From Massilia sp. W12 (GTDB lineage: Bacteria; Pseudomonadota; Gammaproteobacteria; Burkholderiales; Burkholderiaceae_D): a DNA stretch of 64,000 bases. The DNA lies in the NCBI RefSeq assembly GCF_037300705.1, contig NZ_CP147776.1, positions 5,026,857 to 5,090,856 on the forward strand, read 5' to 3'. The position numbers and the translations under genes were made by a program. This document shows positions 1-44,773 of this stretch, in pieces. Each line of letters starts with the position of its first letter. Position 1 is the stretch's first letter. The notes beneath the pieces were generated by a model. It did no database searches and was not told the origin of the DNA. It was given only the letters and a program-made list of their open reading frames with translations.

Positions 1-790
1 TCAATTCCTGCACCAGCGAACGAGCTGGACTGGTGGCTGGAATCATCGTCGCAAACAGCGAGTTCGATGCCAAGGAATTACTCAAATCCATTGCCATTGC
101 GGTCTCAACGCTAATACCGATGTCGGTAAAAAGTTGAAAATCCTTCAAACTCTTCGGACTAGCCGCAGCAGCCACAGCACTTTTCAATGCAACATAAAAT
201 GCGCGACGCGCAAATAAAACATTGCGCAGATCGTCGATTTTGTCGAAAGATGCTCCGCGTTCTGACGTGCCAAACAAACGATAAGTTTGATCTGAGCCAA
301 GACCGGTAAATAAAGGAGTACCAGCCCAACCAGCGTTTTGATTATTAAAAATAGCACTGTCGGCAGGAATAGTTTCAAATAGTGTCTCGCCCACACCAAT
401 TGCATCTGCATTGGCGATATCTGTCATGGTTGGCGCCACTACATTACCATAAGCATCCGCCTCCCTAATACGTCGGGTATTGGGATTCGCCCCCAAAATA
501 TCAGCAAGTGCATTTTTAGCTACTTTATTTGACGCCTTCTGCATCAAGTCATCTGAATAATTCGTCGCACCGCGCAATTCCATCTGTTTCTTGCTATAAC
601 TACGAATAAATTCAGAAAAAATACCCTTACCGGAATTGGCTAGCTCTGCTCCTTCAAACCAGCGCTTTTCACTACTATTTGGCAATATACTAGCTATGTA
701 TTTATAAATATGACTATAGTTACCATTTACTTCCCCCGCCTCAGCAAGTTGCTTGATTTGTGCTATTTGTGCTGCTGTGAATTTATGCAT
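1..790 (-). CDS. Hypothetical protein, N-terminal 263 aa only; the ORF runs off the left window edge. It sits in the AT-rich island downstream of the lipoprotein paralog array and is a possible secreted effector/toxin partner of that array.
   Basis: My own translation of the minus strand from ATG (rc 788-790): MHKFTAAQIAQIKQLAEAGEVNGNY...ATSPARSLVQEL. It continues to position 1 with no stop and has an AT-rich composition like the array. I recognise no family motif. Confidence 0.5.
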   Translation of the reverse strand, partial: MHKFTAAQIAQIKQLAEAGEVNGNYSHIYKYIASILPNSSEKRWFEGAELANSGKGIFSEFIRSYSKKQMELRGATNYSDDLMQKASNKVAKNALADILGANPNTRRIREADAYGNVVAPTMTDIANADAIGVGETLFETIPADSAIFNNQNAGWAGTPLFTGLGSDQTYRLFGTSERGASFDKIDDLRNVLFARRAFYVALKSAVAAAASPKSLKDFQLFTDIGISVETAMAMDLSNSLASNSLFATMIPATSPARSLVQEL

Positions 791-816
791 ATCTATCCTA
801 ATTAGTTTAATAAAAT

Positions 817-1575
817 TTATCTCTGAACCGCGTGATCAAAAAATACATGTAGTTCCCTATAAATCTCTCGCCAATAAGGCAACAATTTAGGGACAAATTT
901 ATAGGTAACAGCAATATCCGGCTGGTAAACAAGGTCGGCGACACAATTTATCAATGGATGCACTTTGTCCTCGATTTGAGCTGCGGCGTCGCAGTGAATG
1001 CTGAAAGGGTAATCTCGCCCTCCATTATAATTTTGGTCGATTGGCACATAAACATACCTTTCAACATCTTTCCCATCTACAACCATATACTCGTGTAAAC
1101 CCCAATTATCCTTTTGATTACGAATAGGTGATTTCGCAATTATTTCATCAATATACTTCTTTTGCATAGCACTCCACTCATGGCTCTCACCCAAACTAGC
1201 GTTAAAATCAATGTCTATAACGCCCAATGTTTTCTCTTCAGCAGCCTTTTTGTCTGGTACCAGTTTATGATCGGCTGTAAAAGAAAGGCTAATCCTAATC
1301 TCATTTGCCCAACCTGGACGAATTTTGCTTGGATTTTTATACGCATCCCAACCAAGAGTGCCAGCATAAACTGTAATTTCAGGATCAAATCGCAATGTAG
1401 GGCGAAAATTGTTTCTGTCATTGAACAGCGTAATCTGATTGACGGTTTTCCCATCATTGATGATGCCATGTAAAGCATTATGCTCCGTGGAGCCGTACAT
1501 GGGCATGGGACGCTCACAAGCCACAAGTAGCGCAAGGCATAGTAAGCTCAGCCAATTCATATAGTTTTTCTGCAT
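817..1575 (-). CDS. Lipoprotein paralog, copy 1 (divergent middle region), 253 aa. Signal peptide plus lipobox (LLVAC). The N-terminal extension in the ORF track (to 1737) is rejected.
   Basis: ORF 817..1737 contains an internal start MQKNYMNWLSLLCLALLVAC|ERP, a typical lipoprotein signal with a cysteine. The upstream 54 codons overlap the previous copy's 3' end in another frame. Copy 1 shares its N- and C-terminal regions with copies 2 and 3 but has a divergent centre. Confidence 0.7.
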   Translation of the reverse strand: MQKNYMNWLSLLCLALLVACERPMPMYGSTEHNALHGIINDGKTVNQITLFNDRNNFRPTLRFDPEITVYAGTLGWDAYKNPSKIRPGWANEIRISLSFTADHKLVPDKKAAEEKTLGVIDIDFNASLGESHEWSAMQKKYIDEIIAKSPIRNQKDNWGLHEYMVVDGKDVERYVYVPIDQNYNGGRDYPFSIHCDAAAQIEDKVHPLINCVADLVYQPDIAVTYKFVPKLLPYWREIYRELHVFFDHAVQR

Positions 1576-1609
1576 TGTTCGCATTGTGTCCTCAATCAAA
1601 AAGGAAATC

Positions 1610-2368
1610 CTATCTCTGAACCGTTTGATCAAAAAATACATGTAGCTCCCGATAAATCTCTCGCCAATAAGGCAACAAATTAGGGCTAAATGCATAAGTA
1701 ACAGCAATGTCGGGCTTATAGAGAAGGTTGGCGACACAATTTGTCAATGGATGTACTTTATCTTCGATTAGAGCACCTGTATTGCAGTGAATGCTAAAAG
1801 GATAATCTCGCCCACCATTATATTTTTGGTCGATTGGCACATAAACATACCTGTCAACTTCTTTCCCATCTACAACCATATATTCGTGTAGACCCCAATC
1901 ATTTCTTTGGTTACGAATAGGCGATCTGGCAATTATTTCAGCAATGAGTTTATTTTGCTTGGCATTCCAATCAGGGCTATCACCAAGATTAGCGATGAAA
2001 TCTATATATACAAAACCCAATATTTCATTTTCAGGAATTTTATTAGCCGCCAACAATTTCTTATTTTTTGTAAAACCAAGAACTATATTAATTTTATTTG
2101 CCCAACCTGGACGAATTTTGGTTGGATTTTTATACGCATCCCAACCAAGAGTTGCAGCACGAACTGTAATTTCAGGGTCAAATCGCAATGTGGGTCGAAA
2201 ATCATTCCTGTCATTGAACAGCGTAATCTGATTGACGGTTTTCCCATCATTGATGATGCCATGTAAAGCATTATGCTCAGGGGAGCCGTACATGGGCATT
2301 GGACGCTCACAAGCCACAAGTAGCGCAAGGCATAGTAAGCTCAGCCAATTCATATAGTTTTTCTGCAT
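1610..2368 (-). CDS. Lipoprotein paralog, copy 2 (253 aa).
   Basis: Same signal/lipobox start (MQKNYMNWLSLLCLALLVAC). The protein is identical to copy 3, consistent with a recent 793-bp tandem duplication. Confidence 0.7.
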   Translation of the reverse strand: MQKNYMNWLSLLCLALLVACERPMPMYGSPEHNALHGIINDGKTVNQITLFNDRNDFRPTLRFDPEITVRAATLGWDAYKNPTKIRPGWANKINIVLGFTKNKKLLAANKIPENEILGFVYIDFIANLGDSPDWNAKQNKLIAEIIARSPIRNQRNDWGLHEYMVVDGKEVDRYVYVPIDQKYNGGRDYPFSIHCNTGALIEDKVHPLTNCVANLLYKPDIAVTYAFSPNLLPYWREIYRELHVFFDQTVQR

Positions 2369-2402
2369 TGTTCGCATTGTGTCCTCAATCAAAAAGGAAA
2401 TC

Positions 2403-3161
2403 CTATCTCTGAACCGTTTGATCAAAAAATACATGTAGCTCCCGATAAATCTCTCGCCAATAAGGCAACAAATTAGGGCTAAATGCATAAGTAACAGCAA
2501 TGTCGGGCTTATAGAGAAGGTTGGCGACACAATTTGTCAATGGATGTACTTTATCTTCGATTAGAGCACCTGTATTGCAGTGAATGCTAAAAGGATAATC
2601 TCGCCCACCATTATATTTTTGGTCGATTGGCACATAAACATACCTGTCAACTTCTTTCCCATCTACAACCATATATTCGTGTAGACCCCAATCATTTCTT
2701 TGGTTACGAATAGGCGATCTGGCAATTATTTCAGCAATGAGTTTATTTTGCTTGGCATTCCAATCAGGGCTATCACCAAGATTAGCGATGAAATCTATAT
2801 ATACAAAACCCAATATTTCATTTTCAGGAATTTTATTAGCCGCCAACAATTTCTTATTTTTTGTAAAACCAAGAACTATATTAATTTTATTTGCCCAACC
2901 TGGACGAATTTTGGTTGGATTTTTATACGCATCCCAACCAAGAGTTGCAGCACGAACTGTAATTTCAGGGTCAAATCGCAATGTGGGTCGAAAATCATTC
3001 CTGTCATTGAACAGCGTAATCTGATTGACGGTTTTCCCATCATTGATGATGCCATGTAAAGCATTATGCTCAGGGGAGCCGTACATGGGCATTGGACGCT
3101 CACAAGCCACAAGTAGCGCAAGGCATAGTAAGCTCAGCCAATTCATATAGTTTTTCTGCAT
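2403..3161 (-). CDS. Lipoprotein paralog, copy 3 (253 aa), identical to copy 2.
   Basis: ORF 2403..3323 translation is identical to ORF 1610..2530. The nucleotide unit 1610-2402 repeats at 2403-3195. Confidence 0.7.
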   Translation of the reverse strand: MQKNYMNWLSLLCLALLVACERPMPMYGSPEHNALHGIINDGKTVNQITLFNDRNDFRPTLRFDPEITVRAATLGWDAYKNPTKIRPGWANKINIVLGFTKNKKLLAANKIPENEILGFVYIDFIANLGDSPDWNAKQNKLIAEIIARSPIRNQRNDWGLHEYMVVDGKEVDRYVYVPIDQKYNGGRDYPFSIHCNTGALIEDKVHPLTNCVANLLYKPDIAVTYAFSPNLLPYWREIYRELHVFFDQTVQR

Positions 3162-3195
3162 TGTTCGCATTGTGTCCTCAATCAAAAAGGAAATC

Positions 3196-3959
3196 CTATC
3201 TCTGAACCGTTTGATCAAAAAATACATGTAGCTCCCGATAAATCTCTCGCCAATAAGGCAACAAATTAGGGCTAAATGCATAAGTAACAGCAATGTCGGG
3301 CTTATAGAGAAGGTTGGCGACACAATTTGGCAATGGATGTACTTTATCTTCGATTAGAGCACCTGTATTGCAGTGAATGCTAAAGGATAATCTCGCCCAC
3401 CATTATAAACTTGGTCGATAGGAATATAAACATACCTCTCAACACGATTTTTTTCTACGGTTATATACTCGCGCAAACCCCAATCATCTTTTTGATTGCG
3501 AATAGGCGATTTAGCAATTATTTCATCAATGAGTTTATTTTGCATAGTATTCCAATCAGGGCTATCACCCAAATTAGCGATTAAATCAATATTTAAAAAA
3601 CCCAATATTTCATTTTCAGGAATTTTATTACCCACCACTAATTTCTTATTTTTTGTAAAATCAAGAACTATATTAATAGTATTTGCCCAACCTGGACGAA
3701 TTTTGCTTGGATTTTTATACGCATTCCAACCAAGAGTGCTGGCATAAACTGTAATTTCAGGATCAAATCGCAATGTAGGCCGAAAATTGTTTCTGTCATT
3801 GAACAGCGTAATCTGATTGACGGTTTTCCCATCATTGATGATGCCATGTAAAGCATTATGCTCAGAGGAGCCGTACAGGGGCATGGGACGCTCACATGCT
3901 GTAAGTAGCACGAAGGATACTAAAATTAGATTACTCAAATAATAGTGTTTTTTATTCAT
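3196..3959 (-). pseudogene. Lipoprotein paralog, copy 4. It is frameshifted near 3375 (one A missing relative to the other copies). The intact N-terminal portion is ORF 3354..3959 with its own signal/lipobox MNKKHYYLSNLILVSFVLLTAC.
   Basis: The 208-aa ORF ends GGRDYPLAFTAIQVL* where the other copies continue GGRDYPFSIHC.... Nucleotide homology to the repeat unit continues downstream of the premature stop to about 3200. Confidence 0.55.
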
Positions 3960-4439
3960 TGTTATTACACTCAAACACAAATCACTACCATTATCATAAT
4001 ATTAAAAATCAAATATTATGATTTTCTTATGCTGTCCCAAGTTGAATTTTCATGTCCTCAGCCAGATATAGTAATCGGATTTCTGAACACATCCATTTAG
4101 AAACACACTGTCAAGGCTGGCCGTCGTTTAGATTAAGCACAGGGGTTTTGAATAGACAATGGGAAAATTTGTAAGTAAAATTACCAAGCAAAGATGCAAA
4201 ATCTTAGCACAGAAATTTCCATAAAGCAACAACATGCGCTCAAAAACACTTTTCCCCCAATGAGCAAAGCCCCAAAAATTTTGTTGTTTGCAAACCAAGG
4301 GCATACTACATGCCAGGACGTTTTGATCTTTTAAGTTTCACTTAAATAAATCCTAAAAGTAAAGTTAACTTTTCGCGTGATGTGTTTTCATTCTTGCTTT
4401 TTTCCAAAACAGAATGGCATGCATGATGTGACGAGACGA

Positions 4440-5158
4440 TCAGTGGCCAAGCATTGAGACCTTGGTACCTGGAAAGGCTGGGGATAGCGGCAGAACAGGC
4501 GTGAATAACCGGCTGTTTGTAGAGGCTGTACTATGAATAGCAAAGACAGGCAGCCCGTGGCGGGATTTGCCAGCTGAATTAGGCTCATGGAACAGCGTCT
4601 ATATGAGGTTTGCGCGTTAGTGGGATAAGCAGGTGTGACGCAAGATATTTGCAGTACTGTGCGAGGATGCGGATTTTAAGGAAATTTTTCTTGATAGCAC
4701 CATCATGAGGGCGCATCAACATGCCGCTGGAACAGCAAAAGAAGCGTAATTCATTGGCAGATCTGGTGGAGGACTAAGCACGAAAATTCATGCTTGCCTT
4801 GAGGGCTTGGGCAATTTGGTTCAGTTCATCCTGACTGGCGGACAAGTGAACGATATCACCCGGGAAGTTGCCTTGCTCAATGACATCGCGCCGCAAGCGG
4901 TGCTGGCAGGGAAAGCCTACGATCCCAACACATTGATTGCGTGCATTGAAGAGAAACAGCCAAGGTCGGGATTCCACCAAAGGCGAACCGGAAAGAACAG
5001 CGGGAGTATGATCCGTTCCATATCGAAATCGCAATCTCATTGCGCTTTTTTTCGCCAAAATTAAGCAATTCCGGCGGATTACTACGCGCTATGACAAACT
5101 GGATACCCGTTTCGCCTTGTTTATAAGTTTGGCGACATCAATGATCAGGCTAAAGTAA
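4440..5158 (+). pseudogene. IS5-family (IS427/IS1031-like) transposase, degraded with multiple frameshifts and a stop.
   Basis: Frame fragments read ...DSTIMRAHQHAAG..., ...LSTKIHACLEGLGNLVQFILTGGQVNDIT...AVLAGKAYDPN... (ORF 4807..5064), and in another frame ...LFFAKIKQFRRITTRYDKLDTRFALFISLATSMIRLK* ending at 5158. These are classic IS5-family DDE region and C-terminal motifs but not in one frame. Confidence 0.65.
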
Positions 5159-5285
5159 ATGTAAACATACCCCAGTCCAGACTGAACTTCCCTCATGACT
5201 GCCTGCCCACCATTGCGGCGCACTGCTGATGGCGGGCAGTTTCGTTTCTGCGCCAATCAATCCAGATTGATCAGATTTGCTGCAC

Positions 5286-6233
5286 TCAGGCGCGACGGCG
5301 GCGCGCGGCCCAGCCGAGCAGGCCCAGGCCGCCCAACAGCATGGCCCAGGTGTGCGCTTCCGGCACGGCGGAAGGCGTGTGCCACGGCTCGTAACCGATT
5401 TCCACTTGCGCATTGATCGAATGCGCCATCACACTGCCTTCGATATGTCCCGTACCGCTGATATTGGCGCCGGTGGCCAAAATGCTGCCCCAGGTAAAGG
5501 TCGAGATCTTGACATCGCTGGCGTTGACGAAATTGAACAGCACGCGGTCGCGCAGGGCTTCCAACTGCCCATCCTGGCCGCCGGCGAAGGTGTAATTGCC
5601 GGGCGCACCGAAGACATTCACCACCACTTGCGCATCGCTGCGCACGTTTTGCAAATACAGATTGCTGAGTTGATTGGTGTGCAGATTGAAGACCTGGGTG
5701 TGCGCCTGACCGTCACCGCTCAGATACAGTCCGCCCCATTTTTGCTCAACCACGCCATTTGCCGCCAGCTTGCTCAAATCGCTGGAAAGCTGCGTCAATT
5801 TGCCGTGCGCGGCGGCGAAGTCGAGCGGCTTGCCCTGGCGCAGATCGTGCACTGACAAGGATTGATTTTTGCCGCCGTACACGCCGTAGCCCAGCGGTTT
5901 TTCCCAGGAGGTGATAGGGCCGGTGCTGGCATTGGTATCAATATTGGTCTTGGGCGGGCCGAAAATCGCGCCTGTGCCGAGTTTCACATCGCCGCCCACC
6001 ACCAGCGATGCCGCGCTGCTGCCATAGGGCGCGCGGTAGCCGATTGAAAAGCCGCTGGTCTGCAGCGAGCCGCCCACCGCCAAACGGCCTTCGACATCCA
6101 TCACGCGACTGGCGTCGCCAAAGAAAAAGCCGCTGTAGTCGCGCGCCGCGCCCAGATCAATCCGGGTTGCCGCTTGTGCGCTGGCGGCGCACAAGCCGGC
6201 CAGCAAAATCAAGATTGCAGAAGAGGGTTTCAT
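5286..6233 (-). CDS. PEP-CTERM sorting-domain secreted protein. N-terminal signal peptide, Gly/Ser/Thr-rich body, and a C-terminal VPEA...GLLGWAARRRRA anchor.
   Basis: Internal start MKPSSAILILLAGLCAASAQA. The C-terminus PSAVPEAHTWAMLLGGLGLLGWAARRRRA is a PEP motif + TM + Arg cluster. Confidence 0.75.
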   Translation of the reverse strand: MKPSSAILILLAGLCAASAQAATRIDLGAARDYSGFFFGDASRVMDVEGRLAVGGSLQTSGFSIGYRAPYGSSAASLVVGGDVKLGTGAIFGPPKTNIDTNASTGPITSWEKPLGYGVYGGKNQSLSVHDLRQGKPLDFAAAHGKLTQLSSDLSKLAANGVVEQKWGGLYLSGDGQAHTQVFNLHTNQLSNLYLQNVRSDAQVVVNVFGAPGNYTFAGGQDGQLEALRDRVLFNFVNASDVKISTFTWGSILATGANISGTGHIEGSVMAHSINAQVEIGYEPWHTPSAVPEAHTWAMLLGGLGLLGWAARRRRA

Positions 6234-6495
6234 CAATATCCTTGTGGCAAGAAGGCCGGTGGACATATGAAGGAAGCCGCCGGCAATTGAGGTAAGTACC
6301 AATTTCGATTTGGTATTATATCGGTATTATTTACGCAGAGCAATACACTGATTTGGCCCTGCCCTCTAATTGGGGGGATGCGGTAGCCGGCCCTGCTGCC
6401 GGCGGCAGGCGCGCGCGCTACCCATGGCAATTGGCAAGCCGGTCGGCTTGTCAAATCGGCTATCATGCGGTCTTCATGAATTTGCTGGATTTGTT

Positions 6496-8931
6496 ATGAA
6501 CGCTCCCGCCAAGAAAAAATCAACCCTGATGCGCATTCTCATTTTGCTTGGCATCGGCGGCGCGCTGTGTGGCGCGCTGTTGCTGGGTTTTATGATGATT
6601 GTGATTCAGCCGCAGCTGCCGGATCTGGCGGAAATGACCGATTACCGGCCCAAGATGCCCTTGCGGGTGTACACCGCTGACGGTGCGCTGCTGGGTGAAT
6701 TCGGGCAGCAAAAACGTGATTTCATCGCCGCCAAAGATATGCCGGTGATGATGAAAAAAGCCTTGCTGGCGGTCGAGGATTCGCGTTTTTATGAGCACGG
6801 CGGGGTCGATTTCAAAGGCGTGTTGCGCGCCATTGTGAGCGACTTGAGCGGCGGCATGCGCCAGGGCGCTTCAACCATCACGATGCAAATCGCACGCGAT
6901 TTTTATCTGACGCGGGAAAAATTGATGACGCGCAAGCTGACCGAGGTGATGCTGGCGCACCGCATCGAATCTGCGCTGAATAAAGAACAAATCCTGGAGC
7001 TGTATATGAACCAGGTGTATCTGGGCGAGCGCGCTTACGGTTTTGGTGCGGCGGCCCGCATTTACTATGGCAAAAAAGTGTCGGAATTGAGCATTGCGCA
7101 GATGGCGATGTTGGCCGGCTTGCCGCAGCGCCCGGCGGATGCGAATCCGGTCGCCAACTACAAGCGCGCGCGCAACCGGCAATTGATTGTGCTGCGCCGC
7201 ATGCTCGACACCGGCGCGATTACGCAAGCCCAGTATGAGGCGGCCAAGGCGGAACCGCATGCGCTGCGCGAACGCGGCCGCAGCACCGAGCCAAGCGGCG
7301 AATATGTGGCGGAAATGGTGCGTCAGGCCTTGTTTGAGCAATATAAAGAGCAGATTTATGTGAATGGCCTGTCGGTGTACACCACGGTCAACAAGGCGGA
7401 GCAGGAAGCCGCCTGGGACGCTTTGCGGCGCCAGGTGCTGACGTATGAAAGCCGGCACGGTTTCCGTGGCCCGGAAGCGCGCATCGCCCTGCCGGCGAAT
7501 GCCGAAGAACGCGAAGAGGCGATTGCCGATGGCCTGGAGAAATTGCCGCGCGTGTATAAAATCCCGCTCGCCGTGGTGCTGGCGGCCAGCCCCAAATTAC
7601 TGAAGGTGGAAACCGAAAGCGGCGAAGAGCTGGAGATTGGCAGCGAGGGTTTGCGCCTGGTGCAAGGCGCACTGTCTGCCAAAGCCGATGCGCAGAAAAA
7701 AATCACGCCCGGCGCGGTGCTGCGTTTGATGCAAGACGCCAAGGGCCGCTGGCAGGTGGTGCAGCTGCCGCAGGTGGCGGCCGGTTTCACCGCACTCGAC
7801 GCGAAAACCGGCGCAGTGCGCGCCCTGGTTGGCGGCTTTGATTACAATCTGTCCAAATTCAACCACGCCACGCAAGCCTGGCGCCAGCCCGGCTCCAGCA
7901 TCAAACCCTTTATTTATTCCGCCGGGGTGGAAGAAGGCATGTGGCCGGGCACCCTGATCAATGGGCGTGAATTGAGCATTCCTTCCGGCGGCAATGTCTG
8001 GAGTCCGGAGAACGATGACGGCGTGTATGAGGACGCCGTGAGCATGAAGCAGGCTTTAACCAAGTCCAAAAATGTGATCGCGGTGCGGATTTTGCGCCAT
8101 GTCGGGATTACGCGCGGCCATGCTTTCTTGCAGCGCTTCGGCTTTGATCTGGATAAACATCCGAAAAATCTGACCATGGCCCTGGGGACAGGCTCGGTCA
8201 CGGTGCAGCAAATGGCGGCGGCGTATGCGGTGTTTGCGAATGGCGGCCATCGGGTGCAGCCGTATTTGATCGCCAAGGTGCAGGATGCGCGCGGCAAAGT
8301 CTTGTTTGAAGCCCGGCCAACGCAGTTGGATGACAGCACGCGCGTGCTGTCGGCGCAAAACGCCTTTTTGATGCACCAGATGATGCATCAAGTAACCGTC
8401 AGCGGCACTGCCGCCGCCGCCACCCAGCGTCTGGGGCGGCAGGATCTGGCCGGCAAAACCGGCACCACCAGCGATGCGCTGGACGGCTGGTTTGGCGGCT
8501 ATGCGCAAAACATTGTGGCGGTGGGCTGGATGGGCTATGACGATCCGCGCTCGCTGGGCGGCAAGGAATTCGGCTCCAGTCTGGCGCTGCCGATCTGGAT
8601 TGACTATATGCGCGTGGCGCTGGCCGGCAAACCGGCGGCTGAACGTCCGCTGCCGGGCGGGATTGTGTTCCAGGATGGCGATTATTTGCCGCAAGCGCGG
8701 CTGGAAGATGGCAGCTTGATCCGCGCCGTGGAATTGGGCGAGGCCGCCGGCGAAAGCGCGCCGCCGGCGCAGACGCATGAGCCGGAGCCGCAGCACGCGC
8801 CGGCGCCGCAGCCTGCCGCCCATGCCCCGGCGCCGCAACGCGCCGCGCCAGCGGCCCCCGCCGCCCCTGCGCCGGCGCAACCGACGCCCGGCGGTTTTTT
8901 CCCGCGCAAGCCGGATCCGGCGCCGCGATGA
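6496..8931 (+). CDS. mrcA: Penicillin-binding protein 1A (bifunctional transglycosylase/transpeptidase) with a Pro/Ala-rich C-terminal tail.
   Basis: Membrane anchor MRILILLGIGGALCG. GT51 motifs (EDSRFYEHGGVD, RQGASTITMQ), transpeptidase SIKP and KTGT motifs. Start chosen at MNAPAKKK (6496). Confidence 0.9.
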   Translation: MNAPAKKKSTLMRILILLGIGGALCGALLLGFMMIVIQPQLPDLAEMTDYRPKMPLRVYTADGALLGEFGQQKRDFIAAKDMPVMMKKALLAVEDSRFYEHGGVDFKGVLRAIVSDLSGGMRQGASTITMQIARDFYLTREKLMTRKLTEVMLAHRIESALNKEQILELYMNQVYLGERAYGFGAAARIYYGKKVSELSIAQMAMLAGLPQRPADANPVANYKRARNRQLIVLRRMLDTGAITQAQYEAAKAEPHALRERGRSTEPSGEYVAEMVRQALFEQYKEQIYVNGLSVYTTVNKAEQEAAWDALRRQVLTYESRHGFRGPEARIALPANAEEREEAIADGLEKLPRVYKIPLAVVLAASPKLLKVETESGEELEIGSEGLRLVQGALSAKADAQKKITPGAVLRLMQDAKGRWQVVQLPQVAAGFTALDAKTGAVRALVGGFDYNLSKFNHATQAWRQPGSSIKPFIYSAGVEEGMWPGTLINGRELSIPSGGNVWSPENDDGVYEDAVSMKQALTKSKNVIAVRILRHVGITRGHAFLQRFGFDLDKHPKNLTMALGTGSVTVQQMAAAYAVFANGGHRVQPYLIAKVQDARGKVLFEARPTQLDDSTRVLSAQNAFLMHQMMHQVTVSGTAAAATQRLGRQDLAGKTGTTSDALDGWFGGYAQNIVAVGWMGYDDPRSLGGKEFGSSLALPIWIDYMRVALAGKPAAERPLPGGIVFQDGDYLPQARLEDGSLIRAVELGEAAGESAPPAQTHEPEPQHAPAPQPAAHAPAPQRAAPAAPAAPAPAQPTPGGFFPRKPDPAPR

Positions 8932-9497
8932 ATTTGCTGCGTTTGGATTGGCGCTATCCACTCGCCCCCGGCGTGCTGTTGCGCGCGCTGGAGCCGGGCG
9001 ACGCCGCCGCGCTGCTCAAGTTTGAACGCGACAACCGCGCCTGGTTTGAGCGTTTTATTGAGCCGCGCGGCGCTTTCTTTTATTGGCCCGACGGGGTGCA
9101 AGCGCATGTGCAGGAATTTTGCGCGGCGATGCAAAGCGGCCAGTTGCTGGCCCTGCTGCTGGAGGAAGATGGGGCCATCATTGGCCGCATCAATTTGCAT
9201 GGCATCGCCAGACACAGCGCACGCATCGGCTACCGTCAGGCGCAGCATGCCTGCGGTCGCGGTCTGACCAGTCTGGCGGTGGCGCAAGTCTGTCACTGGG
9301 CGCAGGAAAGGCTGGACTTGCACAATTTGCGCACCTGGGTGGTGCAGGAAAATGCGGCGAGCGCGCGGGTGCTGCATAAAAATGGCTTTGTGCTGCTGCG
9401 CAAGGGGGAGAAAAAAACCCCGCTGGCGCATGGCCAAGCCGTGTGTGATGGCTGGTGGAAATTGCTGCAAGCGCATGCCGGCATACGCCAAGTCTGA
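8928..9497 (+). CDS. GNAT-family N-acetyltransferase (RimJ/RimL-like).
   Basis: 189-aa ORF whose ATGA overlaps the mrcA stop. It has a GNAT-like core (…IIGRINLHGIARHSARIGYRQAQHACGRGL…). Confidence 0.6.
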   Translation: MNLLRLDWRYPLAPGVLLRALEPGDAAALLKFERDNRAWFERFIEPRGAFFYWPDGVQAHVQEFCAAMQSGQLLALLLEEDGAIIGRINLHGIARHSARIGYRQAQHACGRGLTSLAVAQVCHWAQERLDLHNLRTWVVQENAASARVLHKNGFVLLRKGEKKTPLAHGQAVCDGWWKLLQAHAGIRQV

Positions 9498-9600
9498 CAA
9501 ATCTGAACTTTTCCCCCTGCCGCTTCTCTATGCCGGCAAAGCCTGCAAGCCTGTCCTCAGCCACTTGCCATTCCGACACGATTACCACTTTGGAGACTGC

Positions 9601-12600
9601 ATGTTTGCTCACCACCCCCGCCAGTTGGCGCTGCGCCCATTGGCGTTTGCCGCCGCACTTTTGCTGGCCGCGCCCGCCCTGGCGAAAGAAGAGAAAAACG
9701 CCTGGGATGTGAATCATCCGCCAGGCGCCAAACAAAGCGTGCAATTGGATGTGCGCAGCGGCACCTGGATGAGCGTCGATGTCAGCCCGGATGGCAAAGA
9801 AGTGCTGTTTGATTTGCTGGGCGATCTGTATGTCTTGCCGCTTGAGGGCGGCGCAGCGCGCGCGTTGACGCGCGGCATGGCCTGGGATATGCAAGCGCGT
9901 TTTGCGCCGGACGGCAAACATATTCTGTATATGTCTGACGCCGGCGGCGGCGATAATCTGTGGCTGATGCAGCGCGATGGCAGTGGCGCGCGGCCCTTGA
10001 CCAAGGAAGATTACCGCCTGCTGAACAATCCGGTCTGGCACCCGCAGGGCGAATATGTGGCGGCGCGCAAGCATATGGTGGGCAGCCGCTCCGCCGGTTC
10101 GGGCGAAATCTGGCTGTATCACAAAGACGGCGGCCAGGGCGTGCAATTGACCGATAAACCGAATTGGCAAAAAGACTCGGGCGAGCCGGCTTTTTCACCG
10201 GACGGGCGCTATCTGTATTACTCCCAGGATGTGACTCCGGGCAGCACCTTTGAATACAATAAAAACAGCCACCGCCAGATTTATCAAATCCTGCGCCGCG
10301 ATTTGCAAGAGGGTAAAACGATTCCGTTTGTGCGCGGGCCGGGCGGCGCGGTGCGTCCCACCCCTTCACCGGATGGCCGCTATCTGGCCTTTGTGCGCCG
10401 CGTGCTGGGACAGTCCACCTTGTTTCTGAAAGATTTGCAAAGCGGCGCGGAAATTCCGGTATGGAATCAGTTGGAGCGCGATTTGCAGGAATCCTGGGCC
10501 ATGCACGGGGTGTATCCCTCGTTTGCCTGGCTGCCCGGCAGCCGCGAACTGGTGATCTGGGCGCGCGGCAAGCTGTGGCGGGTGGCGCCGTTTGACGCCA
10601 GCGGCGCACCGCAGCAGGCCGCCGCCAAAGAAATTCCCTTCCATATCAAAGATACGCGCGAGATCCGTCCCGCGCTGCGGTTTGCGCAGCAAGCCGCGCC
10701 GGAGCAATTTGCGGTGCGTGAATTGCGCTGGCCGCGCGTGGCGCCGCAAGGCGATCAGGTGGCGTATGCGGCTTTGGGCAAAATCTGGCTGCGCAAGCTG
10801 CCGGACGGCAAGCCGCAGCGCATGAGCAGCCAGGAACAACATATGGAAATGTTCCCGGTGTTTTCGCCGGATGGCAAGCAGCTTGCTTACACCACTTGGC
10901 ATGACAGCGAATTTGGCAGCGTGCGGGTGCGCGATCTGGCCAGCGGCAAGGAAGTGGTGTTGAGCAAAGAACCGGGCAAATATCTGTCCCCGGCCTTTTC
11001 CAGCGATGGCCGGCAATTGGCCTGGGTCAAGAGCAGCGCAGCGTATCTGACTTCGCCCTGGCATGGTTTGAACCCCGGGGTGTACGCCGCCGCAGTGCAT
11101 GGCGCCGAGGCGCCGCATTTGCTGACGGAGCACGGCAGCGCGCCGCAATCCGCCGGCGCTCACTGGTATGTCACGCGTAACCGGGCGCTGGATGAAGTCA
11201 GTTTTGAAACCACGCTGGTGCGTCTGGCGCAGGGCGGCAATCCGGAAAGCATCGTCGCCAAGAGCGATGCCGCGAGCGAAATTGTGTTCAGCCCGAATGG
11301 ACGCGAACTGGCGTTTATTGATCACCGCCATGCCTATATCATGCCGGCCCCGCTGACCGGCAAAACGCTGGATGTGAGCCGGCAGGCCGGTTTGCCGCAA
11401 CAAAAATTGGATGTCAACGCGGCCAACGGGGTGCATTTTTCCGGCGATGGGCAGCGCCTGTATTTCACGCTGGGCGCGGAATTGCACAGCCGCGATTTAC
11501 AGAGTTTGCGCCAGCAGCGCAGCGAGCAGGCGCGCAAGGCCGGCCTGGCGGCAGTGAAAAAAGACAATAAGGCGACGGACAAGGCGGCGGCGCAAGGCTG
11601 GCAGCCGCCGGAACAGGGTTTGCCGATCGGCTTTATGCATGCCAGCGACAAGCCGCGCGGCCTGCTGGTGCTGGATGGGGCCAAGATCATCACCATGCAA
11701 GGCGATCAGGTGATTACGCGCGGCCGCATTGTGTTGCAGGACAATCGCATTCTGGCGCTGGGCGAGCAGGATAAGGTGGCGCTGCCGGCCAAGGCGCAGG
11801 TGGTTGATGTCAGCGGCAAAACCATTATTCCCGGCTTAGTCGATGTGCACTGGCATGGCGCGATGGCGGATGATGAGATTACGCCGCAGCAAAGCTGGAT
11901 CAACCACGCTTCGCTGGCGTTTGGCGTGACCACCTTGCATGATCCGTCAAATGATACGGAAGCGATTTTCACGCAAGCAGAATTACAGCGCGCCGGCTTG
12001 ATCACGGCCCCGCGCATTTTTTCGACCGGCACGATTTTATATGGCCCGCGCATTCCCTTCGGTTCGCCGGTGGAAAGCCTGGAGGATGCGCTGACTCACG
12101 TAAAACGCATGAAAGCGCATGGCGCCTTCAGCGTGAAAAGCTATAACCAGCCGCGCCGCGATCAGCGGCAACAGATTGTGGAGGCGGCGCGCCAGCAAAA
12201 CATGATGGTGGTGCCGGAGGGCGGCGCGCTGTTTCAGCACAATATGACCATGATCATCGACGGCCACACCGGAATTGAGCATGCGCTGCCGCTGGAAAAT
12301 GTGTATGAGGATGTGCTTCAGCTGTGGGGACAAAGCAAAGTCGGCTATACGCCAACCTTGGGGGTCGGCTATGGCGGCCTGGACGGTGAGCACTACTGGT
12401 ATGCGCACAGCGAGGTATGGAAGCATCCGCTGCTGACCCGTCATGTCCCGGCTGGCATTCTGCAGGCGCGCGCAGTGCGGCGCGAGCTGGCCCCGGAGCA
12501 GGATTACAATGTGTTCAAGATTGCGCGCGGCGCGCAGCAATTGAGTGCGCATGGGGTGAAAGTGAATCTGGGCGCACACGGCCAGCGCGAAGGTTTGGCC

Positions 12601-25476: not shown

Positions 25477-28400
25477 TCACTCAGGCCGCTTCACCCCTGC
25501 CTTGTGCTTGCCAACCTCATGCGCCCCGCTTTTTTTGCCGGCTTGCAGTACGCTCAACAGCCGTTTGTCCAACTCACTGATATTGGCCGACATTTCGCGC
25601 ACGCTGTCCCAGATGCTGTGGTCGAGGCGCATTTTGTGGTTCATTGAGCTGAGCATGGGCAGCAGGGTTTGTTCATAGCTTTCCGTCAATTTGAGCAGAG
25701 CCTTTTGCAAGATCAGCTGCTCCGGCACGCTGATGTCAATTTTGGCCGGCATACGCTGCGCCATCGCTTCGATTTGCGCGCTGATGTCGCCCAGCAGATT
25801 GGCGATTTTGGTGGCGCCATCGGCGTCGGCCCCGCCTTGTTTGCGCAGGCGCAGAAAGTCGCTGCACAACTCCCGCCAGCGCGCCTGCTCCTGTGCGCTT
25901 GGCTGTCCCAGCAAATGCGCCAGTTTCAGCAGATTTTCTTCCGCGCCGGTGGTCAGGGTTTGCGCTTCGCCGCGATAGTGGTCGCGCAATAAAAGATCGA
26001 GTTCCGCCGGACTCATCAAGGCGGAAATCCTGGCGGCCAGCTTGGCCATATTCCGGTAACTGCCTTGCAGCTTGAAGCTTGGTTCTGTACGGTATTGCGG
26101 ATCTTGCGCGGCGGAAGCGATGTAGGCCTGGTTCACCGCCAGCACCGCGTCGCGCACCTTGCACATGCGCTGCAAGACTGCGCATATTTCGCTGATTTCC
26201 TGGCTGCTGTAAGCGTGTTGCAATTGGCTGGCGGCAATCGGCTCGCCTTGCGCCATGCGCAACAAGAGTTGCACATCCTGCGGCGCGCGGTTGTTTAAGA
26301 CCTGCAATACCGGATTGGCGACCAGCGCGTTTTCGATATACGACATGGCGAACACATCTTCATGCCCGGACAGCATATCGCCCAGATTATAAATATCGGC
26401 GCGATTGGCCAGCATGTCGGGAATGCGGAACATCTCGCCCGATTCGGTGTAAGGATTGCCCGCCATCACAATCGCAAAGCGCTTGCCGCGCAAATCATAG
26501 GTATGGCTGGCGCCGCGCCAGATCCCTTCGATACGGCGGGTGCCATCGGCTAAGCCGATGAATTTTTGCAAAAACTCGGCATTGGTATGCTGAATATCAT
26601 CCAGATACAGCATCACATTATTGCCCATGGCCAAACCCAGATTCAGCTTTTCCAGCTCCATGCGCGCGGCGCTGTTGGCGGCTTGCGCCGGATCGAGCGA
26701 GCGCACTTCATGCCCTAACACCGGGCAGTTGATACGCACAAAAATCATGCCCAGGCGGTCGGCAAGATATTCCATCAAGGTGGTTTTGCCGTAGCCGGGC
26801 GGCGAGATCAGTAACAGCATGCCCATCGAGTCGGTGCGCCGGGCGTCGCCTGCCGCGCCGATTTGCTTGGCCAGATTGTCGCCGATGGTGGGCAGATACA
26901 CATCATCAATCAAGCGGTTGCGCACAAAACTGGAGAGCGGTTTGGCTTGGAATTGTTCAAGCCGCAAACGCGCTTTTTCTGCTTGCAAGAGTTGCAAGCG
27001 CAAAGCCTGCAATTGCAGATAATGCGGGACATGCACTTGGCAGTGAGATTGCAAACGGCGCACGAATTCATTCAGATGTAAATCCAGACTTTGTTCTTGC
27101 ACGCGCGCATGTTCGCCCAATACATTGCTGATTTTCACACGCAATTCAAGCGCCAGTATGTCGCGCGGTAAGGGACAGAGTAAGGCTGCTGCCGCTTCCG
27201 GCAACACGCTGTCTTGCGTCGCACTGTGCGATGCCGCGCCGCCTTGCGCTGTCAGGCTGGCCAGCCAGGCGCAGGCAAGCTGCCAGCGTTCGGCCAGACT
27301 GAGCTCGGCCGCCTGCCACGGCAAGCTGATTTGATGGCGGCTGAAATGCTGCAATAAATTTTGCATCAAATCGGCGGCGCTGCGGCTCAACACCCATTTG
27401 TGTTCAGCTTTGAAATTGCCGCTGCCCGGATGCTGGCCCAGTTCCGCCAATAAATAACTGGCGGCCTGCTCCAGCGTCAGGGACAGATCCGAGCCGGCGA
27501 AAATATCGCTCTGATCCAAGCCCTGTTGTTGCACAAATTGCGCCAGATTGGCTTGCTGGGTTTTTGTCAATTGCTGCAGCAAGGCGCGATTGCCAAACTG
27601 GCGCCGCATCAGTTCTGCTTGCTGCGCCTGGAGACACAGCGTTTGCGCTGCGACTTGCGGCGCCAGTTGTGTGGCAAGGTGTTGCCAATACAGCAGGGCA
27701 AGCGCGCGTGCGCCGGCGTCGTAGCGCAGCAAACCGGCGCTATCCAGCATCGGCGCCAGGCTGCGCAGAATTTGCACTGCATCGTGGTCATGCAGCCCTT
27801 TTTGATAGCCTTCCTGATAGCGTGGCGCGGCAAATTGCCGTACTTGCATCAGTAACTGCGCGCCATCCACCTCTCGCACTCCGTCTTGCAGCAATTGCCA
27901 AGTCCAGCCTTCACGCCCTTCCTGCGCCGCCAGTACGACTTGCCAGGCCAGATATTCGGCGCGATACACTTGCGCGCTCTCGGCCAGGCTTTGTTGCTGC
28001 CAATACGCTTCCAGCGCTTGCAGGCGCGGTTCATCGACCGGGAAAAAATAATCGGTGCCGGTCAAGTGATAGCACATCTGCTGCTTGTGCAAGACCATAT
28101 TCAGGTCTAAGGGCTGGCTGTTGACGGTGAAGGCGTGGCGCCCCAGGCGTATCGTATTGCCGCTGACTAATTCGGTGCGGTCGCGCAAAGCGCGCTGCCC
28201 CTGTTCGCGCAGATTTTTCAGCTGCCCGGCCAGATCATCGGCGCTGACGTTGCTGCCCAGTTTGCGCAAATCTTGAATACTGCTTTTGAGTTTTGCCACC
28301 AGGGCATCGGCGGCAAAGTACGCTTCCAGTTGCGCCGCTTCAGTAAATTGCTGCAAGCGTTTCGGAATGCTGTGCAAGACGCGTTGCGCGGCGTCGGTAA

Positions 28401-30780: not shown

Positions 30781-30913
30781 GTCTGGCTATTCCGTGGTGA
30801 AGATTGGACAAAGCTGCACTGTGCGCGATGATATGCCGCCAGGCATGCGGCTGGCGGGACATCATTACGGGCCAGGGGCGTTTGCAGCCTGCCCCCCAGC
30901 CTGGCCACCCGCC

Positions 30914-33088: not shown

Positions 33089-33155
33089 ATTTTTCCTTCC
33101 TGGCTTTGTTAATCGGTATAACTGATGAACCGCAAGCTTCTCTTGCACAAATGAA

Positions 33156-33827
33156 TTAATTGGAACTGTCTTTATCCAGCGCCGCCACTTCGTAGCGCTG
33201 CTTTGTTTCGTCATAGGACAAAATGACAGCAATGGATTTTTTTCGTAAATGATTGGGGGTTTTTGCCCACACCCGGATATTCAGATTGACTCCCGTATCT
33301 TTGACTTCAGCACGGCCAAACTTTTCATCCACCGACAGCGTGGTGATCATGCAGCTCAAGCCGGTCAGGCTGTGATTGCTGCGCGCATGGTGTTTGACAA
33401 ACAATGGGCGCAGCGGTTTGATGGCCAGCGCAGACAAACGGATCGAACAGGCCGCGCTGAGCAATAAAACCATCGCGCCGGCAAGATAACGCAGCACATC
33501 ACTGCCCAACATCTGCAGCAGATATTTATGAATCAGCGCACTCAGCAACCAGGTGAAAAACACCAGCAGGGTCAGGACGATGGACAAGGGCACGCCGCCC
33601 AGGCCGAGCGCCACCAGATATGAGGCCAGCGAGTGCAAATCCGTGCTTTCGGCATGGGCATCAGTATGCAGATGCACATCAGCTGCGCCATCGCCGCTAT
33701 CGAGTTCCAGGTTGTCCCCCAGATCGACCAAGCCGATGATGGAAAACAACCAGTACACCAGCAAAATCGCCAAAAAGATGCCCGGTATGATGGTGGGAAA
33801 ACTGCCGAGCAATTGCCAGAGCGTCAT
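33156..33827 (-). CDS. YqiJ/NfeD-like inner-membrane protein (partner of flotillin).
   Basis: Several TM helices followed by a C-terminal soluble beta-rich segment (…EKFGRAEVKDTGVNLNIRVWAKT…), resembling the NfeD/YqiJ arrangement upstream of the flotillin gene. Confidence 0.55.
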   Translation of the reverse strand: MTLWQLLGSFPTIIPGIFLAILLVYWLFSIIGLVDLGDNLELDSGDGAADVHLHTDAHAESTDLHSLASYLVALGLGGVPLSIVLTLLVFFTWLLSALIHKYLLQMLGSDVLRYLAGAMVLLLSAACSIRLSALAIKPLRPLFVKHHARSNHSLTGLSCMITTLSVDEKFGRAEVKDTGVNLNIRVWAKTPNHLRKKSIAVILSYDETKQRYEVAALDKDSSN

Positions 33828-44772: not shown

Positions 44773-44773
44773 A

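Follow-up and report, generated by a model that had tools for sequence, protein, structure and literature searches.

A low-GC tandem array of lipoprotein genes in Massilia sp. W12 as a candidate immunity-type or cognate-binder locus for an RTX protein

The left end of the window (i.e., the whole 64,000-nucleotide stretch of Massilia sp. W12 DNA that was analysed) carries four tandem lipoprotein genes followed by the 5' part of a further gene. We consider it somewhat probable that the array encodes immunity-type or cognate-binder proteins for an RTX effector of a type I secretion system (T1SS), of the kind represented by FrpD/FrpC and Smlt3025/Smlt3024, rather than part of a type VI secretion system (T6SS). 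The original prediction, an immunity-type lipoprotein array beside a secreted-effector gene in a T6SS or contact-dependent (CDI) setting, is retained in its first part based on the predicted Smlt3025/FrpD fold, the pairing of the two genes in eight loci and the recurrence of arrays, and is unsupported in its second.

All array genes and the downstream gene are on the minus strand, transcribed in the order A (3959-3196), B (3170-2403), C (2377-1610), D (1584-817) and the downstream gene (ATG at 790). Given as plus-strand coordinates, the four direct repeat units occupy positions 817-1609, 1610-2402, 2403-3195 and 3196-3988, with start-to-start distances of 793, 793 and 792-793, in agreement with the predicted four tandem copies of a roughly 250-aa lipoprotein gene at a 793-bp period. 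The array is missing from the TRF output because the longest period in that search was 500. Units 2 and 3 share 100% nucleotide identity, and unit 1 has 85.6% DNA identity to unit 2. A perfectly periodic stretch extends from 1508 to 3329 and consists of an exact 1029-nt repeat at an offset of 793 (1508-2536 is identical to 2301-3329). Such a repeat indicates that duplication or gene conversion took place recently, and the stretch is a substrate for unequal recombination; with identical units, the copy number is unstable. No terminator-like site was found between the lipoprotein copies.

Copies B (2403..3170; of the type of NCBI V8J88_20425) and C (1610..2377) are intact and nucleotide-identical, while copy D (817..1584; V8J88_20415), the last of the array, is an intact, divergent paralog whose protein has 78% amino acid identity to B/C and matches the family HMM with an E value of 1e-85. 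The likely start of B, C and D is the ATG of MRTMQKNY, located 4 nt past GAGGA, which gives proteins of 255 aa where the NCBI annotation gives 247 aa. Copy A (3196..3959; V8J88_20430), the first in the array, has its own signal peptide, MNKKHYYLSNLILVSFVLLTAC, and is inactivated by a 1-nt deletion, a single T missing from a T-run near 3383 in the alignment to copy B. With one T put back, its ORF is full-length at 254 aa, with 84% identity to B/C; the NCBI entry is the truncated 201-aa product, and the family HMM matches both halves of the copy (3357-4001 and 3199-3402). The anticipated pattern of two identical copies, one divergent and one frameshifted was therefore recovered, as were the two lipoboxes, LLVAC and LLTAC, the latter in copy A. 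Comparison of the paralogs also confirmed conserved N- and C-terminal regions around a variable middle. In the comparison of D with C, dN/dS is 0.33 overall and 0.35 in the middle, and is below 1 everywhere, and dS along the pair is mosaic, ranging from 0 to 1.15. The pattern looks like purifying selection combined with gene conversion of the ends, so that diversifying selection is not demonstrable and the description of the array as diversifying was not upheld.

The array lies in an AT-rich island, as had been noted from the sequence. The GC content is 0.392 for positions 1-4400 (39%) and 0.388 for the array, compared to 0.576 for positions 5300-64000 (58%); the contrast stands, although the value of more than 60% first given for the genome is slightly high for the window. 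The region 3960..4400 (minus strand), on the 5' side of copy A, is an AT-rich non-coding leader presumed to hold the promoter region of the array operon, although a search for a consensus promoter gave nothing convincing. On its right side, the island is bordered by a decayed transposase gene (4400..5140, plus strand) with several in-frame stop codons, whose frame +1 translation reads ...DSTIMRAHQHAAG...IGRSGGGLSTKIHA...GKAYD..., interrupted by these stops. We take it to be of the IS5 family from its family motifs; a Pfam scan of an 85-aa piece gave no match. The island is apparently horizontally acquired DNA. A foreign island beside a dead insertion sequence, one copy already broken, and two 100% identical units that could reflect mis-assembly or very recent amplification would all be compatible with an unrelated lipoprotein gene amplified by chance, or with an array that is partly a repeat assembly artefact, its adjacency to the downstream gene being accidental. 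We regard this as highly improbable, since copies A and D, being divergent, cannot have arisen as artefacts, purifying selection acts on the intact paralogs, the lipoprotein belongs to a family with 59 representatives at E<=1e-3, and the order of lipoprotein gene and downstream domain is kept in eight loci of different bacteria.

The lipoprotein has no match in Pfam or NCBIfam, including any immunity family, and the proposed relationship to known immunity families such as Tli or Tsi found no support at this level. Its AF2 model, of medium confidence and built from only 8 sequences, gave only two clear structure matches, Smlt3025 and FrpD (Foldseek TM-score 0.40). When a profile of 35 family sequences was searched against 177,635 PDB sequences, the only match at E<=10 was 6pdk_A, i.e., Smlt3025 (E value 0.033), a weak match over 41 residues that span the C-terminal strand-helix motif C..F...L.V.Y...L..W. 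Two cysteines are invariant in the 35 members, and this pair fits an extracytoplasmic protein. One 783-aa protein contains three fused lipoprotein repeats. Smlt3025 (PDB: 6PDK) is the lipoprotein immunity protein of the Stenotrophomonas maltophilia type IV secretion system (T4SS) effector Smlt3024, an X-Tfi/X-Tfe pair; the effector exerts its toxicity in the periplasm alone, and Smlt3025, encoded upstream of it, neutralises it (PMC6759196). The Massilia lipoprotein and Smlt3025 share 10-13% identity in structural alignments, which is at noise level, and the Smlt3025 gene occurs once, apart from a paralogous pair at another site (Smlt0500/0501), as opposed to the four-copy array described here.

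The 5' part of the downstream gene (1..790, minus strand; 263 codons) runs past the window start. Its ATG is preceded by AGGA and lies 26 nt from the stop of copy D. The encoded N-terminal domain (N-domain) represents an uncharacterised family with no match in Pfam or NCBIfam, and its AF2 model contains helices only (pLDDT 73). Homologues include P0009 (69%) and the protein of locus L021 (59% identity), in which the RTX Ca-binding repeat family PF00353 begins at about residue 496. A search of 5.8 billion proteins with the N-domain matched no Massilia W12 protein, for which reason the gene may be annotated as a pseudogene in this strain. We infer that the Massilia gene itself would run on into RTX repeats; these, the C-terminal secretion signal and any T1SS genes of the locus would lie beyond the window. 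The N-terminal region of Smlt3024 has been reported to share homology with the N-terminal parts of 221 RTX proteins, and is also found fused to VgrG and Rhs (PMC6759196). A profile of the Smlt3024 family, rebuilt from S4 Fig of PMC6759196, aligned with the N-domain family profile colinearly from residue 1, with scores of 26.1 and 25.4 (P 0.007-0.008). None of 80 column shuffles and none of the block shuffles, run in sets of 80 and 100, reached the score (best shuffle 24.6 versus 25.4), and the hhalign probability was about 5%. This weak, colinear similarity is suggestive of a relationship between the N-domain and the Smlt3024 toxin family. Smlt3024 differs in that it is 440 aa long and has an XVIPCD signal at its C-terminus and T4SS delivery, a context not seen here, whereas the N-domain relatives are RTX proteins of 800 to more than 2600 aa beside T1SS genes.

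The pairing of the two genes is conserved. In eight loci, namely the window, L008, L009, L010, L012, L020, L021 and L022, an N-domain gene is directly preceded by a lipoprotein-family gene in the same orientation (L008-L012 were fetched with the N-domain query, L020-L022 with the lipoprotein query). RTX repeats (PF00353) follow the N-domain in seven related loci, i.e., L008, L009, L011, L012, L021 and L022 by Pfam scan, and L015 (Acinetobacter boissieri), where precomputed hits place it in an ORF overlapping the N-domain ORF. Adjacent T1SS genes are present in two loci, namely an ABC transporter gene with a C39-like domain and an HlyD gene in L010, and ABC, MFP and OEP genes in L015; L012 has a C39 fragment. 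Arrays recur as well, with at least two tandem lipoprotein copies (74% identical) in L001, two in L002-L007, and four in L015, flanked by the T1SS genes on one side and the N-domain/RTX gene on the other. A T6SS or CDI locus with Tli-like repeats and PAAR, VgrG or Rhs proteins is unsupported; the relatives of the downstream gene are RTX proteins with HlyB/HlyD/TolC-type genes alongside. A Pfam scan of the 16 window ORFs with a length of 200 aa or more revealed no T6SS genes, and none were noted in the related loci among the selected ORFs scanned or with precomputed Pfam hits. Neither a metabolic downstream gene nor a lipoprotein of substrate-binding type, the outcomes named beforehand as adverse, was encountered.

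The short gap that separates the downstream ATG from copy D, a sign of tight operon linkage, and the location of the L010 lipoprotein gene between the T1SS genes and the substrate gene would also suit a chaperone, usher or maturation factor for RTX export or activation. Known T1SS, however, require only ABC, MFP and OMP components, and secretion helpers usually exist as one conserved copy. In the present family the genes are duplicated, frameshifted or orphaned, as is typical of immunity-type genes, the partner gene differs by locus, and in L015, L002 and L011/L017 the same position is taken by a different lipoprotein family, all of which makes such a helper role quite unlikely.

The classical model for FrpD leads to another alternative. 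FrpD (PDB: 5EDF/5EDJ) and FrpC are a lipoprotein and an RTX protein of Neisseria meningitidis; frpD precedes frpC in one operon, and FrpD binds FrpC(1-414) with a Kd of about 0.2 nM (PMC5233953). The published role of FrpD is that of a surface tether, an immunity function having never been shown. By analogy, an outer-membrane lipoprotein would capture the RTX N-domain and hold the RTX protein on the producer's surface for adhesion, biofilm or matrix anchoring, with neither toxin nor immunity involved. This is a possible but rather unlikely explanation, since a tether has no obvious need for two to four diverged tandem copies, yet arrays recur; since the partnerless orphan lipoprotein gene in L018/L019 is of a sort common for immunity genes; and since Smlt3025, a proven immunity protein, is both the top match in structure and the single match in sequence. 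Moreover, adhesion is itself no more than a "putative" role for FrpD/FrpC, their function being unsettled between adhesion and toxin plus immunity. The Neisseria system also differs in that FrpD lacks detectable sequence similarity to the Massilia lipoprotein (the profile search did not return it at E<=10), in that frpD is iron-regulated and present once, against four copies here, and in that FrpC has a self-processing Asp-Pro module, a feature not seen in the sequences examined here.

The immunity-type or cognate-binder reading can also be compared with polymorphic-toxin immunity arrays (T6SS Tli/Tsi repeats and CdiI/Rhs orphan arrays), which likewise comprise diverged copies of small envelope proteins adjoining a secreted-protein gene, some of them identical, pseudogenised or orphaned, in foreign-looking low-GC DNA by insertion sequence remnants. 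The Massilia locus departs from these in that the ORFs scanned include neither T6SS nor CDI or Rhs components and the lipoprotein matches no known immunity family, in that the array precedes rather than follows the effector gene, and in that the secretion route of its relatives is type I. In serralysin-type T1SS operons (AprA/AprI, PrtA/Inh), a neighbouring small Sec-exported inhibitor neutralises the N-terminal catalytic part of the RTX protein, and the arrangement proposed here, of a T1SS-exported RTX protein encoded beside a small Sec-exported binder, is similar. One N-domain relative bears the source name "serralysin", and Peptidase_M10 occurs in the RTX protein of A. boissieri. Nevertheless, the Massilia N-domain is without a protease motif or Pfam match, and Inh/AprI is a roughly 10-kDa beta-barrel rather than an FrpD-fold lipoprotein.

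In the proposed mechanism, the minus-strand operon would express four lipoprotein genes of the FrpD/Smlt3025 fold (three intact, one recently broken) and then a gene for a large secreted protein, in which an alpha-helical N-terminal domain of about 230-270 residues would be the functional "head" and the rest would be RTX repeats exported by a T1SS, as in relatives. After export by Sec and lipidation at the lipobox cysteine, the lipoproteins would reside in the cell envelope. We infer that lipoprotein and N-domain would bind physically, that the N-domain would be toxic to bacteria and that the lipoproteins would protect against it. Each lipoprotein may bind the N-terminal domain of its cognate RTX protein, or of a variant that a neighbouring cell produces, and thereby neutralise it, in the way that Smlt3025 acts on the periplasm-acting Smlt3024 and FrpD binds FrpC(1-414). 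A classical T1SS substrate bypasses the periplasm of the producer, so that self-protection would be of importance chiefly when siblings deliver the protein. An array of partly diverged tandem copies may broaden or reinforce the protection that the lipoproteins would give.

Positions 1–4400 of the window have a GC content of 39.2%, against 57.6% in 5300–64000, so that the AT-rich island of the original prediction is a real feature of this stretch. Within it there are four direct repeats with a period of 793 bp (817–1609, 1610–2402, 2403–3195 and 3196–3988), each carrying one lipoprotein gene on the minus strand. In the order of transcription, copy A (3959–3196) is disrupted by a 1-nt deletion, copies B (3170–2403) and C (2377–1610) are intact and equal to each other, and copy D (1584–817) is intact and divergent. 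This is the array that had been predicted, with two identical units, one divergent and one frameshifted, to which the strand can now be added. The B and C units are identical, the exact repeat extending over 1029 nt (1508–2536 = 2301–3329); TRF overlooked the array because its longest period was 500, which is shorter than 793. Copy D shares 85.6% DNA identity and 78% protein identity with copy C, and their comparison recovers the conserved ends and variable middle that had been described. The 5' end and signal peptide of copy A, which has the lipobox LLTAC, are unlike those of the other copies. Its frameshift results from the loss of one base from a T-run near 3383, and restoration of one T yields an ORF of 254 aa with 84% identity to B and C. 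In copies B, C, and D, the sequence GAGGA is found 4 nt 5' of the ATG of MRTMQKNYMNWLSLLCLALLVAC, and for this reason we prefer this start (255 aa) to the 247-aa call of NCBI, where the lipoproteins of Massilia sp. W12 have the locus tags V8J88_20415, V8J88_20425, and V8J88_20430. A promoter and terminator scan of the array region gave nothing informative; since it placed no terminator-like site between the genes of the array, we infer a single operon. The perfectly repeated 793-bp units predict that copy number varies from isolate to isolate.

A decayed transposase gene with several in-frame stops and 49% GC, which we take to be of the IS5 family from its motifs, occupies approximately 4400–5140 on the plus strand. 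Located at the GC transition, it constitutes the right border of the island and probably marks how the low-GC segment arrived or was bounded. To its right are ordinary core genes, a PEP-CTERM protein followed by PBP1A. The former (5286–6302, minus strand) is the first gene of host-like GC and includes an ice-binding-like adhesive domain, pAdhesive_15. Elsewhere in the window, a second cluster of mobile elements on the minus strand comprises a Tn5-type transposase (36784–38289) and an IS3-type transposase with an integrase core (39055–40104). The minus strand also encodes Cas1 (43834–44928) and a Cas9 of 1060 aa (44774–47956; Pfam matches to HNH, RuvC_III, and the Cas9 alpha-lobe), whose compact size suggests type II-C. 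At 25477–33232, likewise on the minus strand, a 1767-aa protein with matches to DUF3686 (“ATPase involved in DNA repair”), DUF7902, and AAA is adjacent to a 772-aa Band_7/SPFH protein, and the two may represent a defence-type gene pair.

The signal peptide of the lipoprotein ends, as read from the sequence, at a lipobox cysteine (MRTMQKNYMNWLSLLCLALLVA-C and MNKKHYYLSNLILVSFVLLTA-C) in the manner of a type II signal peptide, and a cysteine closes the hydrophobic N-terminal segment in most of 35 aligned family members. The protein is rare: a word-seeded search of 5.8 billion proteins gave 8 clusters, and an exhaustive search of 1.84 billion proteins with a profile gave 59 representatives at E<=1e-3. 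Members have ~210–275 aa and are nearly all lipoproteins, with two cysteines and one Trp of the C-terminal helix invariant. In one protein of 783 aa (P0038), three consecutive repeats match the C-terminal half of the family, i.e., a fused version of the tandem array. The original prediction had described the paralogs as diversifying. For copies D and C, dN/dS is 0.33 across the whole gene and 0.35 within the variable block (codons 86–150), so diversifying selection is not demonstrable and we reject positive selection on the variable middle. At the same time, dS is uneven along the gene, from 0 at the 5' end up to about 1 in two internal blocks. This is the pattern of functional paralogs kept under purifying selection, with gene conversion having evened out their ends.

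The AF2 model of the lipoprotein, built from an 8-sequence alignment (pLDDT 75.8, pTM 0.73), is a beta-sheet protein with a long terminal helix. The predicted fold, with its N-terminal beta-hairpins, central antiparallel sheet, and long C-terminal helix lying across the sheet, corresponds to the class of FrpD and Smlt3025. Compared with solved structures, the model had only two clear matches, Smlt3025 and FrpD. Independently, a Foldseek search with the model returned Smlt3025 (PDB: 6PDK) as the top and sole high-probability match (E value 3e-3, probability 1.00), with a TM score of only 0.40. Comparison of the 35-sequence family profile with all PDB sequences gave one match at E<=10, again 6pdk_A (E value 0.033 over 41 residues), which covers the last strand and the C-terminal helix; FrpD was absent from these matches. 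Each of the three methods is weak to moderate by itself, but all of them reach the same chain, and a remote evolutionary relationship between the Massilia lipoprotein and Smlt3025 is therefore likely.

Stenotrophomonas maltophilia has a T4SS that kills bacteria; Smlt3024 is an effector of this system, and experiments have proven Smlt3025 to be the immunity lipoprotein for it (PMC6759196). The gene of Smlt3025 is just upstream of that of Smlt3024, which it neutralises and with which it forms a stable complex, and E. coli is inhibited by Smlt3024 only when the effector is directed to the periplasm (PMC6759196). The authors of the Smlt3025 structure remarked on its similarity to FrpD (PMC6759196), a lipoprotein of Neisseria meningitidis whose gene directly precedes, within the frpDC operon, that of the RTX protein FrpC, and which binds FrpC(1-414) with a Kd of ~0.2 nM (PMC5233953). 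The Massilia lipoprotein resembles both in its lipobox, in its predicted fold, and in an upstream, co-oriented gene order.

The gene downstream of copy D starts with an ATG at 790, preceded by AGGA and 26 nt past the copy D stop, and leaves the window after 263 visible codons. The visible residues matched no Pfam or NCBIfam family. The model of their alpha-helical N-terminal part, hereafter the N-domain, is all-helical and without an informative structural neighbour, and an N-domain profile returned nothing at E<=10 from the PDB sequences. Relatives were few in protein searches and most of them, like the lipoproteins, bear the public name “hypothetical protein”. No protein of W12 matched the N-domain in two protein-collection searches, although the three W12 lipoproteins are in the collection, and the downstream gene may have been annotated as a pseudogene or may be missing there. 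The closest full relative, from the metagenomic locus L021, shares 59% identity with the Massilia fragment, and its RTX repeats start at ~residue 496. PF00353 follows the N-domain in five related loci (L008, L009, L011, L021, and L022), starting at ~residues 455–511, while in L012, a decayed remnant, it starts near residue 52. In the Acinetobacter boissieri locus (L015), a 2705-aa RTX/Peptidase_M10 ORF overlaps a 286-aa N-domain ORF, and the two are probably one gene. The relatives of the N-domain are thus RTX proteins that carry this domain at the extreme N-terminus. The string “FTAAQI” led us to consider an N-terminal retention module of the LapA type with a di-alanine site for LapG; we rejected it because the family alignment shows no conservation of the AA and because no LapG or LapD genes were seen.

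The locus was also compared with T6SS modules of the Tli/Tsi type, to which the array and its neighbour had been likened. No Pfam, NCBIfam, or PADLOC model matched the lipoprotein, nor did the same scans give a meaningful match for the N-domain, and no T6SS immunity family was among the Pfam and NCBIfam results. The visible part of the downstream gene has no VgrG, PAAR, Hcp, or Rhs domain and no T6SS toxin domain, its relatives being RTX proteins. Components of T6SS, CDI, or Rhs systems were absent from the scanned ORFs of the window, and none were noted in the related loci among selected ORFs that were scanned or had precomputed Pfam matches. By these scans, the Massilia locus is not of the T6SS Tli/Tsi type. 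The more general proposal of an immunity array beside a secreted-effector gene is, on the other hand, favoured by the fold, the gene pairing, and the recurrence of arrays.

The pairing was examined in loci retrieved with the N-domain from GTDB genomes (L008–L012) and with the lipoprotein from metagenomes (L020–L022, and L018/L019). A lipoprotein gene of the Massilia family lies directly upstream of the N-domain gene and co-oriented with it in four of the five former loci (L008, L009, L010, and L012). In the latter, the N-domain gene is directly downstream of the lipoprotein wherever the sequence reaches (L020, L021, and L022), so that the order lipoprotein to N-domain is found in the window and seven other loci; L018/L019, which are one locus, contain an orphan lipoprotein. 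Type I secretion genes accompany the pair in three loci. An ABC exporter with a C39-like domain and an HlyD protein are beside the pair in L010, a C39-domain fragment is beside it in L012, and genes for ABC, MFP, and OEP components are beside it in L015. In the window, the left side of the locus being beyond its end, none of the 16 scanned ORFs >=200 aa is a T1SS gene.

Several details of these loci are recorded here as observations. In two gammaproteobacterial MAGs (L008, 2790–3559, and L010, 4523–5250), the lipoprotein gene ahead of the N-domain/RTX gene is broken into overlapping frames at one shared position, around an A-rich “EKK” stretch, with a second shift in L008; sequencing error in a homopolymer, decay common to both, or switching by slippage could be the cause. 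In L010, an ORF with the look of a REP/IS200-like transposase, as judged by eye (5960–6694), comes right after a shortened N-domain gene (5267–5950) and appears to have cut off its RTX part. In L008, the lipoprotein/N-domain-RTX pair is flanked by two RTX proteins (1035–2789 and 6690–10250), each with a lipase-like (GHSLGG) domain at its N-terminus, so this one locus contains several T1SS-type substrates with different heads.

Tandem arrays are also found elsewhere. A metagenome contig (L001) carries at least two members of the Massilia lipoprotein family in tandem, which are 74% identical. In A. boissieri (FMYL01000009.1, L015 7387–10011), four tandem lipoprotein paralogs of 213–218 aa with 65–82% identity have the T1SS genes on one side and the N-domain/RTX gene on the other, and in the fourth the lipobox Cys is replaced by Phe (LLAKF). 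These paralogs are preceded by a 253-aa protein of unknown family (6579–7340), and a phage-type integrase is downstream. Two tandem copies are present in L002–L007. Homology of the A. boissieri and L002-type lipoproteins to those of the Massilia type was not demonstrable (hhalign P 0.03, C-terminal helix only), and we treat them as analogous and not as homologous; their family is another one, or has diverged very far. The architecture is thus retained despite a change of the partner family. Small envelope-protein genes that are duplicated, diverged, pseudogenised, and orphaned beside the gene of a secreted protein are typical of the immunity genes of polymorphic toxins.

These comparisons bear on what the lipoproteins might do. 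The main rival reading is the classical role of FrpD, in which they would tether the secreted protein to the cell surface; it would account equally well for the gene pairing, but not for the arrays and orphan copies, and we regard this role as unlikely. A function as a secretion helper is more doubtful still, and an accidental adjacency or assembly artefact is highly improbable, because the partner families vary while synteny is conserved and the copies are under purifying selection. In the reading we favour, the lipoproteins encoded by the operon would sit in the envelope and bind an RTX protein, secreted by the type I route, at its N-terminal head. Such binding would neutralise the head, as Smlt3025 neutralises Smlt3024 and as FrpD, under a hypothesis published in 2019, would neutralise FrpC. 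That hypothesis states that many RTX proteins with such an N-terminal head are antibacterial effectors delivered by T1SS, with FrpD-like lipoproteins as their immunity proteins (PMC6759196), and no later test of it was found in the literature searched. By analogy with these systems, we lean towards an immunity-type array for a T1SS effector, whose lipoproteins would bind and neutralise the RTX head. The Massilia locus probably works like the FrpD/FrpC and Smlt3025/Smlt3024 pairs, to which it is probably distantly related.

Residues 1–308 of Smlt3024 have homologues in the N-termini of 221 large RTX proteins, and this region is also found fused to a VgrG and to an Rhs protein (PMC6759196). Smlt3024(1-260) and 15 family members were rebuilt from the PSI-BLAST alignments in S4 Fig of PMC6759196 for comparison with the N-domain. 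Alignment by hhalign of the N-domain profile with the single Smlt3024 sequence gave nothing. Profile-profile comparison gave a score of 26.1 (P 0.0067) over 136 colinear columns from residue 1 with a 10-sequence Smlt3024 set, and 25.4 (P 0.008) over 149 colinear columns from residue 1 with the 16-sequence set. The real score was not attained in 80 column shuffles (mean 11.7), 80 block shuffles (mean 16.5, maximum 23.0), or a further 100 block shuffles, and reversed profiles scored 13–14. It thus exceeds all 260 shuffles, the best of which reached 24.6, with an hhalign probability of only ~5%. The family-specific motifs differ: “FH..VF...gL....WT”, conserved in the Smlt3024 family, is replaced by “GVG..LF.......W(S/A)GT.LF” in the N-domain family. 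Taken as profiles, the two are suggestive of homology between the N-domain and Smlt3024 residues 1–308.

What is new here are two previously unannotated families; a published hypothesis is extended, and no new kind of system is proposed. Both families, which have no Pfam or NCBIfam model, gain a testable function through fold, weak sequence similarity, and conserved gene order, and the recurrent tandem arrays with pseudogenised and orphan copies are independent comparative support for the 2019 hypothesis. More tentatively, the loci may be a compact and tractable case of an unrecognised class of T1SS-secreted interbacterial RTX toxins, in which the alpha-helical head would take effect in the envelope of rival bacteria, FrpD-fold lipoproteins would neutralise it, and tandem and orphan copies would record the arms race. 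If this possibility is true, FrpC and FrpD of Neisseria, whose function is still called unknown or only putative in the literature consulted, would be explained as a toxin/immunity pair, and one effector-immunity module would be common to T1SS, T4SS, and T6SS delivery. For annotation, low-GC islands of this kind, in Massilia as in other Proteobacteria, would be read as competition or secretion modules and not as random lipoprotein amplification.
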